Shown here piece by piece: positions 2,944 to 56,538 of a stretch of 64,000 bases of DNA. The translations under genes and the position numbers were made by a program. The notes beneath the pieces were generated by a model that worked only from the letters and a program-made list of their open reading frames with translations, ran no database searches and had not been told where the DNA came from. Numbering within the stretch: position 1 is the first letter of the stretch; every line of letters begins with the position of its first letter. The DNA comes from Escherichia coli (GTDB taxonomy: Bacteria; Pseudomonadota; Gammaproteobacteria; Enterobacterales; Enterobacteriaceae): the NCBI RefSeq assembly GCF_045037415.1, contig NZ_CP173438.1; one strand, written 5' to 3'.

Positions 2944-2982
2944 TGTCATTATTGGCAGACAGGATCCGCGGCAATTTCTAAG

Positions 2983-3003
2983 CTGCCTGTACGGCAGTGA
3001 ACT
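2983..3003. repeat. Direct repeat copy 2 (21 bp, ctgcctgtacggcagtgaact)
   Basis: Exact 21-bp match to copy 1. Confidence 0.7.
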
Positions 3004-12706: not shown

Positions 12707-13402
12707 ATGTTCAGAAAATTAGCAGCTGAATGTTTTGGTACTTTCTGGCTTGTTTTTGGCGGCTGTGGTAGTGCCGTACTGGCCGCAGGCTTCCCGGAAT
12801 TAGGCATTGGTTTTGCCGGCGTGGCGTTGGCGTTCGGTCTGACCGTTCTGACAATGGCCTTTGCTGTTGGTCATATTTCTGGTGGTCATTTTAACCCGGC
12901 GGTCACTATTGGTTTATGGGCTGGCGGACGTTTCCCGGCAAAAGAAGTCGTTGGCTACGTAATTGCCCAGGTTGTCGGCGGTATTGTTGCGGCGGCGCTG
13001 CTGTATTTAATTGCCAGTGGTAAAACGGGTTTTGACGCGGCAGCCAGCGGTTTTGCTTCTAACGGTTATGGCGAGCATTCACCAGGCGGTTATTCCATGC
13101 TTTCCGCGCTGGTAGTTGAACTGGTATTGAGTGCAGGTTTCCTGCTGGTGATCCACGGCGCAACTGACAAATTCGCTCCTGCTGGTTTTGCGCCAATTGC
13201 CATTGGTCTGGCCTTAACCCTGATTCACTTAATCAGTATTCCGGTGACTAACACTTCCGTTAACCCGGCGCGCAGTACTGCGGTTGCTATCTTCCAGGGC
13301 GGCTGGGCATTAAAACAACTGTGGTTCTTCTGGGTGGTGCCAATTGTCGGCGGTATTATCGGTGGTCTGATTTACCGGACTCTACTGGAAAAGCGTAATT
13401 AA
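12707..13402 (+). CDS. aqpZ: Aquaporin Z
   Basis: ORF 12701..13402 (GTG); known N-terminus [15 protein letters not shown] at ATG 12707 with RBS gaggtgga; two NPA motifs ([14 protein letters not shown]). Confidence 0.92.
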
Positions 13403-13412
13403 TTAACGCAGA

Positions 13413-13441
13413 AGGCCTGGCGCAATGTCAGGCCTTTTTTT
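13413..13441 (+). terminator. Putative rho-independent terminator of aqpZ
   Basis: Stem aggcctg/caggcct with 9-nt loop followed by a T6 run. Confidence 0.55.
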
Positions 13442-13520
13442 AAGATGTTGTTATATGTTGATTCATCATCTTGTTGCGCTCCTTTCATGAGCTAAGCCAC
13501 ATATTGCCACTGGCGCAAGG

Positions 13521-13645
13521 AGCGTGCAGGGGGCGGCCAATCGCCGCCGCCCCCTGCACCCCCGGGCTCTGGCGAACAAAATCGCCGCTGCGCGGTGCCC
13601 TCGACTTATCCCTTACGGCTACCGGGTCGGCGATTTTGACGCCAC
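13521..13645. repeat. GC-rich structured intergenic element: perfect 14-bp inverted repeat plus a flanking 10-bp long-range inverted repeat
   Basis: gtgcagggggcggc (13524-13537) / gccgccccctgcac (13546-13559) with 8-nt spacer; caaaatcgcc (13577-13586) / ggcgattttg (13629-13638). Confidence 0.5.
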
Positions 13646-13816
13646 CAACACCGGTGCGGTTTGTAATTAAAGCGCAAGAATATCTTTAAATGAAAATGAA
13701 TACCCTACCGATCCTTATGCATAACATTTCCTTTTAATTGCAACTTTACTCGTCCTTCCGCTTTCAGTAGTGTGTCATCGCGCATTTCGAATCTTCTTTG
13801 CAAGGACTGGGTTTTC

Positions 13817-14716
13817 ATGTTTTCTGGGCTGTTAATCATTCTGGTTCCCCTGATTGTGGGTTACCTCATTCCGCTTCGCCAAAAAGCTGCATTAAGAGTT
13901 ATTAATCAGCTCTTAAGCTGGATGGTTTACCTTATTCTCTTTTTTATGGGTATCAGTCTGGCGTTTCTCGATAACCTCGCCAGTAACTTGTTGGCAATTC
14001 TGCATTATTCTGCCGTCAGTACTACCGTTATTTTACTGTGTAATATTGCCGCCCTGATGTGGCTGGAGCGCGGCCTGCCATGGAGCAACCACCATCAGCA
14101 AGAAAAACTCCCGTCGCGTATTGCGATGGCGCTGGAGTCGCTAAAACTGTGCGGCGTAGTAGTGATTGGTTTTGCCATTGGTCTGAGTGGACTGGCTTTC
14201 TTACAACACGCGACCGAAGCCAGTGAATACACCTTAATTCTGCTGCTTTTCCTCGTCGGTATTCAGTTGCGCAATAATGGCATGACCTTAAAGCAGATTG
14301 TCCTTAATCGCCGGGGAATGATTGTCGCCGTGGTGGTGGTTGCCAGTTCATTAATTGGTGGTTTAATTAACGCCTTTATTCTTGATCTTCCCATCAATAC
14401 CGCGCTGGCAATGGCCTCCGGTTTCGGCTGGTATTCTCTTTCCGGTATTTTATTGACCGAATCTTTTGGTCCGGTAATCGGGAGCGCGGCGTTTTTTAAT
14501 GATCTGGCCCGTGAGCTGATTGCTATTATGTTAATCCCTGGGCTGATTCGCCGTAGCCGCTCTACTGCACTGGGCTTATGCGGTGCGACGTCGATGGATT
14601 TCACCCTGCCCGTTCTTCAACGTACAGGCGGGCTGGATATGGTCCCGGCGGCGATTGTTCACGGTTTTATTCTTAGTCTGTTAGTGCCGATTCTCATCGC
14701 CTTTTTCTCTGCATAA
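13817..14716 (+). CDS. lysO: Lysine exporter LysO (YbjE), 299 aa
   Basis: ORF 13772..14716; N-terminus MFSGLLIILVPLIVGY at ATG 13817; polytopic membrane protein. Confidence 0.85.
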   Translation: MFSGLLIILVPLIVGYLIPLRQKAALRVINQLLSWMVYLILFFMGISLAFLDNLASNLLAILHYSAVSTTVILLCNIAALMWLERGLPWSNHHQQEKLPSRIAMALESLKLCGVVVIGFAIGLSGLAFLQHATEASEYTLILLLFLVGIQLRNNGMTLKQIVLNRRGMIVAVVVVASSLIGGLINAFILDLPINTALAMASGFGWYSLSGILLTESFGPVIGSAAFFNDLARELIAIMLIPGLIRRSRSTALGLCGATSMDFTLPVLQRTGGLDMVPAAIVHGFILSLLVPILIAFFSA

Positions 14717-27821: not shown

Positions 27822-27860
27822 TGATGCCGGATGCGGCGTGGACGCCTTATCCGGCCTACA
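27822..27860. repeat. REP (repetitive extragenic palindromic) element
   Basis: tgatgccggatgcggcgtggacgccttatccggcctaca matches the canonical E. coli REP consensus; lies just after the artM stop. Confidence 0.75.
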
Positions 27861-29961: not shown

Positions 29962-30450
29962 TTATTGCAACTGGAAGAACCGCCGACTGGTCGAGGGAAC
30001 GAACAGCAGCATCAGGATGAGCATATCCGGCAGCTTCTGCAGCATCAGGCTATGGAAGATTTCACGTTTTGATTCACCGGGAATGCTGAACAGCTCCGGA
30101 TAACCATACCCCAGCGAAGCCGCCCACAAGTAACTTGCGGCTGTGATTTGTGTCAACAGATACAGCCAGCGCGCCCAGCGACGCCCTTTCACCAGTGAAA
30201 ACGCACACCAGATCTCAATGAAAACCAGCACCAGACTGCTCAAAAAGACCAGCGTTAAACTCCAGGTTTGTACGCTGCGATGAATGAACTCGCCAATACC
30301 GCGCACGCCCAGCGTATTGAAAATCATCAGCACGTCGAGGCCACGGATCATAATAATGGCGAGCGCCGCCACCTGCACCAGCGCAGGCACATTCAGGCGA
30401 GCATGAGATGAAGATGTTTTCTTAAAAAATCCCAACGTTTCGTCTTCCAT
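29962..30450 (-). CDS. ybjO: Inner membrane protein YbjO (DUF2593)
   Basis: 162-aa hydrophobic ORF at the conserved position. Confidence 0.85.
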   Translation of the reverse strand: MEDETLGFFKKTSSSHARLNVPALVQVAALAIIMIRGLDVLMIFNTLGVRGIGEFIHRSVQTWSLTLVFLSSLVLVFIEIWCAFSLVKGRRWARWLYLLTQITAASYLWAASLGYGYPELFSIPGESKREIFHSLMLQKLPDMLILMLLFVPSTSRRFFQLQ

Positions 30451-40371: not shown

Positions 40372-40450
40372 GCCACTGCTTTTCTTTGATGTCCCCATTT
40401 TGTGGAGCCCATCAACCCCGCCATTTCGGTTCAAGGTTGATGGGTTTTTT
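40372..40450 (+). ncRNA. rybB: Hfq-dependent, sigma-E-controlled small RNA RybB
   Basis: gccactgcttttctttgatgtccccattttgtggagcccatcaaccccgccatttcggttcaaggttgatgggtttttt matches RybB as recalled; 3' terminator stem ccatcaacc/ggttgatgg plus T-run; in the ybjL-rcdA intergenic region. Confidence 0.85.
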
Positions 40451-40469
40451 GTTGCCTGAAATTTATCTA

Positions 40470-51765: not shown

Positions 51766-53094
51766 TTACTGCCAGCTAATCTGCGCCCTGCCGTTTTTCT
51801 TACTCTTATACAGCCGCTCATCCGCCAGCATTTTCAATCGTTCGACGGTAGTACATTCATTTGAATGCGCTACACCGATACTGGTGCTTAAATTAATGCT
51901 TCCCACCTGGAAATGAACGATTTCTTTTAGAATCGATAGCAACTCTTCCAGCGTGCCGCCAGTATAAATCACCGCAAATTCGTCACCTCCGAAGCGGTAG
52001 ACTTTACCTTTATCTACCGGGATCTGTGATTTAAGGATTTTCACCACTTTCATCAACACTTCATCGCCCAGCAAATGACCGAAGGTGTCGTTAATGTTTT
52101 TGAATTTATCGACGTCAAACAGGCACAAATAACCGCCTTTTTCCGGCAGCGCTTTTAAATCTTCGTCAAAGGATTTTCTGCCCATCGCTTTGGTCAGGTC
52201 GTCCAGGAATGCCGAGTTATACATACTGTAGAGTTTTTTGACATCGGCAGCCGAAAAGAAAAGCCCGCCATCCAGTACGCGTTCAAAATGGTTATTAATA
52301 ATGGCTTCTTTCTCCACAATACCACGATTAATCACTCTGCGTACCAGATAGAGGCAACTGGCACCCGATATCACTGCCACCAATGCGGCAAAGAAAATAA
52401 TCAATGTACATACCTGAAAATAAACGTCTTTTTTATAAGCAAATACGTACAATCCGGTCGGCAAATAGGAGAAGTGCTCCATTGCTTCCGAAACGGTGAA
52501 GATGGCGTTTTTAGCGTTATATTCATCACCGGTCACCGATTTACCGTTCTTGAACAGGGAGAACATCAGGTTCTCGCTATCCATCGCCAGCGATTTTGAC
52601 AGTAAAGAAAAACGTTCCAGACCAAGCAAAAATATCAGACTACGATTGTGAGTTACCGGATAGAGGTAATAGACGAAGGTTTTACCATCAAAAGAGATAA
52701 ACCCTGTATTTTTGACATGTCGATACTTAACAACCTGCATAATATCTGCACAATAATTTTTCTCAAACTCCTTTACCTGAATACATTCGTCACTGGAAAT
52801 CAGATAAGGACCGACATCGTACAAATAAGAGGGTGAAACCGAGTCGGCGTAAGCTGTGCGTAAGCCAACCAACAGCTGTTCCTCCGTAGGATTTAGCGTG
52901 TTGATCAGATCAATTGCCACACTCCGCCGATATTCAGCAATATTTGCCACCGCAAAAGCAGTATCAATAACGGACTGTTTCAGGCCATACACCCGTTCCT
53001 TTACCATTTGAGTGTAGATCCCGCAGGCAACTGCTGAAATCATGATAAAAATCAGCAGACTGACTGTAAGTACGAATTTATTGATTCTGGACAT
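51766..53094 (-). CDS. dgcI: Diguanylate cyclase DgcI (YliF), membrane-anchored GGDEF protein
   Basis: 442-aa ORF; GGDEF active site (RFGGDEF); N-terminal TM segments; 8 nt downstream of pdeI. Confidence 0.9.
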
Positions 53095-53101
53095 ACGTAA
53101 A

Positions 53102-55450
53102 CTACTCTTTTACTAATTTTCCACTTTTATCCCAGGCGGAGAATGGCATGGGTTTCTGGTACAGATACCCCTGAGCCTGAACACATCCTAATTTGATTAA
53201 TTCACGCGCAACGTCTTCGCTCTCTACGCCTTCCGCAATCACCGGGATCCGGTTATAGCGTGCCAGATCGAAAATAATGCGCACAATTTTTCCCGCAGTA
53301 CCGAAAATATCGCCGGTAAATTGCGAATCCACCTTTATACTGTCTGGATTAATTTCATAAAAACGTTTCAGGTTTGACAAACCGGTGCCAAAGTCATCAA
53401 TCGATACCCGTACCCCTTGTTTACGCAGTTGTTCAATATTGAGATAGAAATGTTCATTAATTCGCTCGATCACGGTTTCGGTGATCTCAACACAAAGGCT
53501 GTTCGCCTTCAGGCCATTTTCTTTCATGATGGTAGTAAAACGCTCATGAAAGTGTGGTTCGTTTAACTGCCAGGGCGAAACATTAATATGCAGTAAGAAA
53601 TCATCCTTCAGCGACGCACGCTGACTAAAATGTCTGAATTCACCCATCGCGGTTTTAATAATTTGATAGCCCAGCTCATTGATAAACCCGATATCTTCAG
53701 CAATGGTAATGAACTTCAGCGGTGAAATAATCCCCCGCTCCGCAGACACCCAACGGCACAACGCCTCCGCGCCCAAAATGGTGCGGGTGTTAATATCAAC
53801 AATCGGTTGATAGACCAGGAATAGTTCGCCAATTTCCATTGCATGGCGAATATTACGCGCAATCCAGATATTCTCTTCTATTTCGTTGAGTTTCGCATCA
53901 TCACAGAAAATAAACTCTGAGAACATATGGTTGCGGATACTGGAAATCGCCAGTTTCAGCTTTTCTGCGTAACTCCAGGCGTTTTCCCCCTGCAAAGGTT
54001 CACAAATAGCAGACTTATGGATGCGCAGATTGCGGTAGCCAAAACTGCTGTCAAAATCGTTTACCGTCGCTATCTTACGGGTAAACGTCTGTACATTTTC
54101 CCGGCACAGGAGTAAATAGAGATCGGCATTAAATGTCACGATATCGCAGCATTGCGCATATTTCTCGGCAATTCGCTGACACAATTTCCTGACGATTTTA
54201 TTGCGTTCATCAACACCAAACACCGCTTCCACAGCTTCCAGACCACACAGTTTGATGATCCCCACAGCCAGATACTGATTATTGTTGGACTCAATAATCG
54301 CCATATTTTTAATAAAACCGCTTTCCTGATCGTAAGAGATCAGCGAGAGCAATTTATTTGCCCGTTCAATTTCAGCATCTTTCATTTCCGCGATCGAATT
54401 TTTGATGCTGATAATCTCTTTCGCATCGCCTTCACGAATCTTCAGGGCCTCGATTTGATCCGTAGAGTCAGGCAAAAACGCCAGCGTATTGACCAAATCT
54501 GTCATTTCAGAAAATTGACGACGGAAAACTCGAGTGGTCATTAAATAAACCACCAGCAATACGATAATAATGAAAGCAAACGGCAGATAAAAAAGTTTAT
54601 CTGATGCGTTCAATAAATTACCACCAGGATAATAAAAATAGATTTCGAATAATGCGTTGTTTGGCACCGCTGATGTTTTTTCAATATATTCCGTATCGAC
54701 AGAATCAATAATATTATAATTACCTTCGCTATTATAAATAATCAATTTTTCACGAGCGAGTTGATTCTTAGCAATGATCTCATGACCTTGCTTTAAAAAT
54801 AGAACTTCATCATTAGCGCTGATGTGATCAAGATACTCGTTCAGATATCGCCAGTTTAAATCGACATGAATTTTATCTACCGCTAACAAATCATGATCTT
54901 TGCCGTTGATGTGTAGCGTAAAAGAGATACATTTTTTACCCGGACGATCAAAGCAATTGTATGCCGGGTTCCAGCTGTTGTTAGAGTCATCTGAAGCCAT
55001 CGACCACGGTCGTTTCGATGGGTTAAAATCGGCAAAAATAACCCGCCCTGACTCGTCGACAAGCGGTCCATTTACTTGTTCCTGATGATAAACAACGATT
55101 TTATCATTCGCCCTCCGCGAAAAGAGATAATATTTATTATCATCAAGTACCAGTCCCACCGAGTCTAAAAATGGCATCATTTCCATTTTCAGAATCACGG
55201 CACGTTGAATCTCCTCTGTATTTTTTAATAAATACAGTGAGTCCTTTAATGTCAGGGCCGAACGTTCAATATCTTTAAAGAAATAGCCAACGTTTTTCTG
55301 AATAAGTTCAAAGCGGCTATCGGCACGTTTTACCGCGCGTTCCGATACCAGTTGATAGTTAATGATGAAAAAAAGACCAATAAATGACAATGCTGCCAAT
55401 AAAAATAAAATTATCAGCCTTATCTTTATCTTTTCGTATAAACTCAGCAT
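53102..55450 (-). CDS. pdeI: c-di-GMP phosphodiesterase PdeI (YliE), membrane-anchored EAL protein
   Basis: 782-aa ORF; N-terminal TM segments with periplasmic region; C-terminal EAL domain (GAEALCRW). Confidence 0.9.
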
Positions 55451-55487
55451 GTTAATACATTTAAAAAAATAACTGTCTGAACGCTGT

Positions 55488-55521
55488 GCCGCTGCAAAAT
55501 AGTCCCTTGCTGCGGCTTTTT
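55488..55521 (+). other. Terminator-like hairpin with T-run in the gsiD-pdeI intergenic region, plus-strand orientation
   Basis: gccgctgcaa/ttgctgcggc stem (one mismatch) followed by ttttt; no plus-strand gene ends here. Confidence 0.35.
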
Positions 55522-55626
55522 AACCAAATTACCCGATTCTACAAAATCAGCAGAAAGTTACAACACTTGCTTAGGGCAATAATTTCCTGTGAGGTGATTA
55601 CCCTTTCAAGCAATATTCAAACGTAA

Positions 55627-56538
55627 CTATCCTTTAATTTTCGGATCCAGCGCATCGCGTAAACCATCGCCCAACAAATTGAACGCCAGTACGGTCAGAA
55701 AAATAGCCAGGGCCGGAAATACAGCGACATGCGGCGCGATAACCATATCCGCTCGTGCCTCATTGAGCATTGCACCCCACTCTGGTGTCGGCGGCTGCGC
55801 ACCGAGGCCGAGAAATGACAGGCTGGCGGCAGAGATAATCGAGGTGCCAATGCGCATGGTGAAAAACACCACGATAGAAGAGACGGTCCCAGGCAAGATA
55901 TGACGCAACAAAATGGTCATATCGCTGGCACCAATACTGCGTGCTGACTCGATAAAGGTTTGCTGTTTCAACACCAGCGTGTTGCCGCGCACCAGCCGGG
56001 CAAACGCGGGGATGGAAAAAATGGCGACTGCGATAATCACGTTAGCAATGCCGCTTCCCAACACCGCAACAACAGCGATCGCCAGTAAAATACCCGGGAA
56101 GGCAAACAGCACATCGCAAATGCGCATGATCAGCCGATCCCACCAGCCTTCATAATATCCAGCCAGCAAGCCCAGCAACGTCCCGATCGCCGCACCGATA
56201 AACACGGCAAACACGCCCGCCGCCAGCGAGATTTGCGCACCAACCAGGACACGGCTGAAAATGTCGCGCCCCAGTGAATCGACACCAAACCAGTGCTGCA
56301 AAGAAGGTCCGTTATTCAGATTGTCATAATCAAAATAATTTTCGGCGTCATAGGGAGCGATCCAGCGTGCAAAAATGGCCACCACAATCAATAAAATAAC
56401 GAACAATGCGGCGGTCATCGCCATATGCTGACGGCGAAATCGTCGCCAGAATTCATGCCACGGTGTACGTACCTGGTCAGGTTTGACCAGTGGCATGGCG
56501 TTTAACACCGCCTGACGTCGCCAGTTAAATAGTCGCAT
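55627..56538 (-). CDS. gsiD: Glutathione ABC transporter permease GsiD
   Basis: 303-aa ORF, DppC/OppC-type permease. Confidence 0.9.

Follow-up and report, generated by a model that had tools for sequence, protein, structure and literature searches.

We have analysed the intergenic region between aqpZ and lysO in a window of 64,000 nt of Escherichia coli DNA, the window being the whole stretch under analysis. Gene order in this part of the window is ybjD (minus strand) followed by aqpZ, lysO and hcp (all plus strand), and a GC-rich, highly structured block lies between aqpZ and lysO. The features of the region are as follows, a strand being given where one applies.

12707 to 13402, plus strand: aqpZ coding sequence, an open reading frame annotated as aqpZ in CFT073, K-12 and other genomes.
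13412 to 13443, plus strand: intrinsic terminator of aqpZ, with hairpin AAGGCCTG/CAGGCCTT at 13412-13436, a 9-nt loop and a T run to about 13443.
About 13473 to 13659: TRIP1a unit, 187 bp compared with 266 bp in K-12, delimited by BLAST mapping, alignments and published coordinates.
13477 to 13524: 5' stem, CGCTCCTT (13477-13484) pairing with AAGGAGCG (13517-13524).
13508 to 13648: equivalent of the 222-bp RRS-lysO core, of which about 141 bp are left, from the alignment of K-12 TRIP1a with TRIP1c.
13524 to 13559: hairpin 1, with perfect 14-bp arms GTGCAGGGGGCGGC and GCCGCCCCCTGCAC and an 8-nt loop.
13544 to 13563, minus strand: RRS G-quadruplex (G4) motif, 5'-GGGGGTGCAGGGGGCGGCGG-3', an exact match to the motif of Pham et al. 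2024.
13570 to 13644: long-range stem closing the second domain, TGGCG..CAAAATCGCCG (13570-13587) pairing with CGGCGATTTTG.CGCCA (13628-13644).
13627 to 13630: junction of a 79-bp deletion, with TCGG microhomology; K-12 and CFT073 have GCGCGAGGTAACATCCCTGTAAAACGCGCCCTCAGCCCACATCCATGTGGGCTGCCCCGGCCTTCAGGGAACGCCTCGG here.
13730 to 13780, plus strand: lysO promoter region and transcription start site (about 13780), from the table of Kim et al. 2012, outside the element.
13817 to 14716, plus strand: lysO (ybjE) coding sequence with its ATG at 13817, homologues of which carry the Pfam domain PF03956 Lys_export.

Elsewhere in the window, the RybB sRNA gene is found at 40375-40453 (plus strand; Rfam RF00110, 105 bits), as expected on this part of the E. 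coli map. A lone Rfam CRISPR-DR4 match (50 bits) at 2975-3002 on the minus strand adjoins a tRNA at 2784-2868 on the plus strand. In strain SF-166 a type I-F cas operon and CRISPR array are located past clpA, on the same side of aqpZ as this match, and the match may be the remnant of an array like that of SF-166. Positions 52001-56000 have a GC content of 0.425 compared with approximately 0.50-0.55 in the rest of the window and may be horizontally acquired DNA.

The block is TRIP1a, by direct sequence match. The published K-12 coordinates of TRIP1a (NC_000913.3 915016-915281) map by BLAST onto 13473-13659 of the window, and the published G4 20-mer of the element known as RRS-lysO matches exactly on the minus strand. 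Apart from a single gap, the aqpZ-lysO intergenic regions of K-12 and CFT073 are collinear with the window, the region being 79 bp longer in both of these strains, and the alignment with K-12 shows scattered single-base differences in addition to the gap. TRIP1a goes back to Rudd (1999, Res Microbiol) and a screen of K-12 intergenic repeats, and TRIP1 has since been surveyed in 6725 genomes (Li et al. 2024, Genes 15:236, PMC10888264), where TRIP1a is placed 31 bp 3' of the aqpZ terminator. RRS-lysO, a "replication risk sequence", is a rediscovery of the same element by Pham, Cox, Goodman and colleagues (PMC10287960, 2023 NAR; PMC10592627/PMC11194060, 2024), taken up also in the preprint of Kusi-Appauh et al. 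2026 (PMC13308219). As described there, RRS consists of two 222-bp near-perfect repeats, at lysO and dusC, each located about 650 kb from dif (PMC10287960, PMC10592627/PMC11194060, PMC13308219); the RRS core is taken here as the stretch that is near-identical between the K-12 lysO and dusC copies. The element and its function are already in the literature, the mildly new observations being the 79-bp-deleted allele and its genomic context. Taken as a whole, the GC-rich aqpZ-lysO block is TRIP1a, the same element as RRS-lysO, present in the window as a natural variant from which 79 bp are missing and very probably acting as DNA.

BLAST of positions 13500-13660, the interval put forward for such a search in an earlier note made from the sequence of this DNA, detects a match in 5425 of 5426 complete E. 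coli genomes at a median of three places per genome. The block is therefore a repeat and, as that note had considered, belongs to a small intergenic repeat family, namely TRIP1. A second copy, approximately 91-94% identical, is present between dusC and yohP and sets the limits of the repeat in the window to about 13473-13659; the interval originally assigned to the block, 13521-13645, covers the core but falls short of the repeat unit defined by homology. Further TRIP1 copies are found at putP-efeU and alx-sstT, and four of the five fixed TRIP1 loci reported by Li et al. (2024, PMC10888264) are covered by the sequences used here. According to the same survey, every complete genome keeps at least one TRIP1 copy. 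Within the window no further copy of TRIP1a is detected, BLAST of TRIP1a returning only 13425-13716, and the hairpin 14-mer has one chance match, with one mismatch, at 30365.

Outside E. coli the distribution is narrow. The exact 18-mer CTGGCGAACAAAATCGCC, which is invariant in full-length Escherichia copies, is found in Escherichia only, plus scattered chance matches (one genome per species), and no TRIP1 precedes lysO in Salmonella enterica, Citrobacter farmeri, Leclercia sp. and Enterobacter hormaechei (loci L089-L092). Both observations fit uneasily with the RRS literature, in which RRS is stated to be highly conserved across enterobacteria. The Salmonella and Enterobacter lysO loci are also without aqpZ. 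In E. coli strain E24 (NZ_CM143896.1 3189296-3190773), the aqpZ-lysO match is in two pieces spanning 1478 bp, with an annotated IS1 transposase overlapping it, indicating that an IS1 has been inserted within or beside the element.

Such a distribution could be produced by a selfish or relic repeat, a MITE-like insertion or recombination product having no host function here, in which the hairpins are kept by template switching and not by selection. Occurrence at several intergenic loci, always just 3' of a gene, is consistent with a repeat of this type, as are its absence upstream of lysO in the four other genera and the restriction of the 18-mer to Escherichia. Against a selfish element, copy number is very low, the loci are fixed, and one copy or more is retained in all complete genomes (Li et al.) and in all except one of those searched here; on inspection of the alignments, the unit ends show neither terminal inverted repeats nor target-site duplications. 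We consider a selfish repeat unlikely, and the structural and genetic evidence given below bears on it further.

GC content of the block reaches 0.72 at 13500-13599 and 0.66 at 13550-13649, compared with 0.34-0.55 in adjacent 100-nt windows. When 13500-13660 is folded as RNA, the energy is -86.6 kcal/mol, with z = -5.06 for the plus strand and z = -3.87 for the minus strand, none of 200 shuffled sequences folding as well, in agreement with the initial description of a markedly GC-rich, structured block. The 14-nt inverted repeat exists as described, being 100% complementary with arms at 13524-13537 and 13546-13559 and a spacer of 8 nt. The long-range repeat is also present and perfect (100% complementary; arms 13577-13587 and 13628-13638), but its arms are 11 nt and not 10 nt in length and are separated by 40 nt and not about 42. 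When folded as single-stranded DNA, the G4-bearing minus strand of the window allele (13473-13659) gives -55 kcal/mol (z = -4.5) and the G4 strand of the K-12 element -83.6 kcal/mol (z = -7.0). Of the TRIP1 multi-stem fold, the window copy has lost two interior hairpins and keeps the 5' stem, hairpin 1 and the closing stem.

Two familiar classes of palindromic element were tried and rejected. REP/BIME membership was dismissed as no REP-like motif is found in the block on comparison with the REP at 27822-27860, a repeat which is canonical by eye (GCCGGATGCGGCG...CGCCTTATCCGGCCTAC), and the earlier view that the block is not a canonical REP stands. An intrinsic terminator was similarly dismissed, hairpin 1 being followed by CCCCGGGCTC with no T or U run, as had been pointed out from the sequence. 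A scan of 13300-13900 returned no terminator-like site and no sigma-70-like promoter; its loop limit of 8 nt caused it to miss the aqpZ terminator, which has a 9-nt loop.

Conservation of the fold was investigated in 22 TRIP1 copies from E. coli, E. albertii, E. whittamii and two further Escherichia species, using a six-helix model. In this set, 97.5% of cells pair under the model, with helix 1 (the 5' stem) 97% paired and having one pair altered on both sides, and helix 3 (the long-range stem) 95.8% paired. Changes on both sides are observed at seven pairs, compared with a mean of 2.4 in shuffles, a single shuffle in 500 attaining seven, and a maximum of one in slid-partner controls. Hairpin 1 contains two compensatory changes from CG to AU pairs in four copies (CGGC/GCCG versus AGGA/TCCT); in the AGGA/TCCT variant the G runs of the G4 arm are unaltered and the change is mirrored on the opposite arm. 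A third hairpin, CAGCCCACAT/ATGTGGGCTG, has three double changes in copies of the TRIP1d type. Judged from these alignments, the hairpin-1 changes appear to preserve the hairpin and not the quadruplex, and a base-paired structure is apparently conserved in TRIP1, with which the G4 and hairpin readings both remain compatible. Compensatory changes in three separate hairpins count against a selfish repeat, with the caveat that template-switch mutation in palindromes can generate paired changes in the absence of selection. The published G4 motif contains only two runs of at least three G, and the evidence published for a role of the G4, rather than of the hairpin overlapping it, consists of a predictor score and strand-asymmetric polymerase stops.

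The strong RNA fold and the location of the block upstream of lysO, on the same strand, raise the possibility that it acts as RNA. Expression of lysO is lysine-regulated through ArgP. These features together are what would favour a structured 5' leader, one of the proposals of the earlier note, in which a riboswitch-like sensor co-transcribed with lysO would exert lysine-dependent control. In K-12, however, transcription of ybjE (lysO) starts 38 nt upstream of the ATG, from the promoter sequence CCTTTTAATTGCAACTTTACTCGTCCTTCCGCTTTCAGTAGTGTGTCATCG (Kim et al. 2012, supplementary TSS table), which is identical to window positions 13730-13780 and places the start at about 13780, some 120 bp 3' of the element. 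No start is listed between this site and aqpZ, including inside the element, in the same K-12 table. The lysO promoter motif, TTTACT...TAGTGTCA, is kept in Salmonella, Citrobacter farmeri, Leclercia and Enterobacter hormaechei, genera in which lysO has the promoter motif without the element, and the same sequence is found 3' of unrelated genes at other loci. In approximately 26% of genomes the element at this locus is inverted (flank-only matches, of which two examples were inspected). A covariance search of the whole window against Rfam, also proposed initially, assigned nothing to the element at gathering score, and a permissive search of 13300-13900 gave best scores of 13-24 bits against thresholds of 35-90 with E-values of at least 0.3, so that no riboswitch or leader family is matched. 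A literature search returned no dedicated paper on ArgP and the ybjE promoter. A role for the element as an RNA regulator of lysO is not supported, because the lysO start lies downstream of it, Rfam gives no match and both orientations of the element are found; we regard a lysO leader as scarcely credible.

An independent small RNA gene, or an insulator or back-up terminator between aqpZ and lysO, is also very improbable. Stable hairpins located directly after the aqpZ terminator would suit such a role, as would the double-Y RNA fold that is conserved across all TRIP1 types (Li et al. 2024, PMC10888264), but none of the hairpins is followed by a T run, and the sRNA envisaged at first is accompanied by no Rfam family or mapped start, nor by a promoter-like or terminator-like site in 13300-13900. 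Moreover, both orientations occur naturally and the palindrome arms fold equally on either strand, so that no transcribed strand is indicated. Translation of the block fares no better. The 72-aa open reading frame called across it is an artefact, as had been suspected: without the 79-bp deletion (3x26+1), which joins two separate frames, it would be interrupted. K-12, CFT073 and other copies have another frame open, and the GC content lengthens all three frames. Recognition of the block as RRS/TRIP1a prevents its annotation as a lysO leader, an sRNA or a 72-aa gene.

Published work on RRS describes effects exerted as DNA. The RecA/SSB peak of single-stranded DNA, demonstrated solely for the full-length K-12 element, vanishes when the corresponding RRS is deleted (RRS papers, K-12). 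A transplanted RRS creates a new peak and an inverted RRS creates none, and synthesis by Pol I, II and IV on the G strand is arrested at the G4 site (Pham et al. 2024, PMC10592627/PMC11194060). Single-molecule replication assays yield a gap in almost all passages if the lagging template is the G strand, compared with about two thirds if it is the C strand (RRS papers). Single RRS deletions in K-12 have no phenotype (RRS papers), as expected of a selfish repeat. In contrast, both K-12 copies are not cleanly deletable unless a 200-kb region is amplified, and deleting or inverting both RRS reshapes supercoiling genome-wide (RRS papers); a pair that is conditionally essential, with genome-wide effects on topology, counts against a repeat lacking host function.

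In the mechanism published for, and shown with, the full-length K-12 element, unwinding by the replisome exposes the G-rich strand as the lagging-strand template. The exposed strand then adopts a very stable fold, the G4-capable run being also one arm of a 12-14-bp GC hairpin situated beside two further stem domains. The lagging-strand polymerase stalls at the folded RRS and restarts downstream, leaving a transient post-replication gap of approximately 0.3-2 kb to which SSB and RecA bind, and the RRS authors propose that, where the Ter macrodomain ends, this gap serves as a topological relief valve. Both the 5' stem and the closing stem are kept in the window allele, along with hairpin 1 and its G4 motif, and by analogy this allele would also trigger gaps. 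GC skew of the plus strand is -0.037 over the 64 kb, with origin and terminus both outside the window, indicating that the minus strand is the G-rich strand and the lagging-strand template; from this skew and synteny with K-12 we infer that the G4 of the window lies on the lagging-strand template, which is also the K-12 arrangement. Few bacterial sequences are shown to program single-stranded gaps in replication, and this element, a proposed boundary mark of the Ter macrodomain, is among them.

The window copy lacks the full length of both the 222-bp core and the 266-bp TRIP1a unit, 79 bp having been deleted, and is therefore an allele of the element and not a full-length copy. The missing sequence was flanked by two TCGG repeats, located at the base of a structured branch, and its removal eliminates two interior hairpins. 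Loss of this interior part of the second stem domain would have occurred by slippage between the two TCGG repeats. A 46-nt query spanning the junction matches 551 of the 5426 complete E. coli genomes (about 10%), all at 99% identity or more, several of the genomes being labelled ST131 or known ST131 isolates. The shared junction suggests a single origin. Further internal losses at short direct repeats are observed across TRIP1 copies (alignment including L073, 5602-5842, and L072, 13939-14204): approximately 125-137 bp between CCCCGG repeats in TRIP1b of K-12 (sequence L005, 556-696) and in the lysO-locus copy of SF-166 (L084, 505-634), 25 bp in hairpin 3 of the copy from one Escherichia species and 11 bp at GCGCAGGGAGC in two copies. 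The TRIP1 ends and hairpin 1 are present in every complete copy examined and the interior is deletion-prone (the copy in L059 is cut by the contig end). Recurrent deletion of this kind is also compatible with a selfish repeat. With respect to TRIP1a/RRS-lysO acting as DNA, the deleted allele is probably functional and still capable of triggering gaps, since hairpin 1 and the G4 motif are intact. Against retained function, the deletion takes away about a third of the 222-bp core, and with it two hairpins that undergo compensatory change, so that the interior may matter.

Orientation of the element varies among natural E. coli. At aqpZ-lysO, 4026 genomes are collinear with the window and approximately 1400 (about 26% of 5426) match in the flanks only; in the two flank-only examples, O145 RM9873-C1 and SF-166, TRIP1 is inverted between non-homologous flanks, full length in the former and deleted in the latter. 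At dusC-yohP, the allele of 1999 of the 5426 genomes has TRIP1c in the orientation opposite to that of K-12 (L004, 1334-1636; L088, 24627-24892). Both RRS/TRIP1 loci have two alternative alleles with opposite element orientations and non-homologous flanks (lysO examples L084 and L085), a pattern which suggests independent insertions or replaced haplotypes and is a further point in favour of a selfish repeat.

The orientation of both members of the RRS pair differs among three genomes. In K-12, the G4 is on the lagging template at both RRS-lysO and RRS-dusC, an assignment taken mainly from Pham et al. 2024 and with which the skew of short pieces (8 kb and 1.3 kb) agrees. In JJ2434, which has the junction of the window, the G4 of RRS-lysO, with 79 bp deleted, is on the lagging template and that of RRS-dusC is on the leading template (GC skew). 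The dusC copy is present in JJ2434 with its G4 on the same strand as that of the lysO copy, making the pair direct repeats whereas the K-12 pair is inverted (one genome, dusC being outside the window). In SF-166, both copies are flipped, with the G4 on the leading template at RRS-lysO and RRS-dusC (GC skew), and the lysO copy has the deletion of about 137 bp; UTI89 has the same 607-bp pattern at the lysO locus as SF-166. Mixed TRIP1 "directions" were reported by Li et al. (2024, PMC10888264), and neither that survey nor the RRS papers cited here relate them to replication. [quoted passage not shown] The occurrence of both orientations at both loci fits poorly with a strictly orientation-dependent essential role. 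If RRS is as dependent on orientation and structure as K-12 suggests, major pathogenic lineages would manage the topology of the Ter region differently; otherwise, hairpin 1 with the G4 would alone matter and orientation would be irrelevant, requiring revision of the published model. The deleted and flipped alleles constitute natural experiments on which parts of RRS and which orientation are needed, and on which of the two structures, the G4 or the overlapping hairpin, is active.

Comparison with known systems places the element as follows. REP/BIME repeats are, like the window element, intergenic, GC-rich, palindromic and repeated, and BIME-2 is also tied to topology, as gyrase sites (RRS literature). 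They differ in being of the GCCGGATG...CATCCGGC consensus type, approximately 35-40 bp in length and present in hundreds of copies, with no similarity to the window element, whereas the TRIP1 unit is approximately 190-270 bp and occurs in 1-5 copies. BoxC, the triplex or PIT motif, is a repeat of about 56 bp with approximately 20-30 copies and three homopurine/homopyrimidine blocks (Holder et al. 2015, PMC4666352); it resembles the window element in being a GC-rich intergenic E. coli repeat and can block polymerases in vitro (PMC4666352). Assignment to BoxC/PIT was rejected, as the window element has no three consecutive triplex blocks on inspection against the published description and carries a name of its own in the literature. 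The pilE G4 of Neisseria gonorrhoeae is, according to the RRS authors, the sole other gap-programming G-quadruplex in bacteria; from the literature, it is unrelated in sequence and starts pilin antigenic variation, in contrast to a role in chromosome topology.

The closest relationships are with the two published descriptions of the element itself. TRIP1a of Li et al. (2024) shares with the window copy its locus, 3' of the aqpZ terminator and about 158 bp upstream of lysO/ybjE, and its sequence, the family including in addition TRIP1b to TRIP1e. It differs in length, 266 bp compared with 187 bp, as a result of the 79-bp internal deletion, and genomes of the window type may have been scored by Li et al. 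as being without TRIP1a, 70% of the length being below the 80% coverage cut-off. RRS-lysO differs from the window copy in extent, about 141 of the 222 core bp being left, and has in common with it the G4 20-mer, its position on the lagging-template strand (GC skew), GC-richness and extensive secondary structure.
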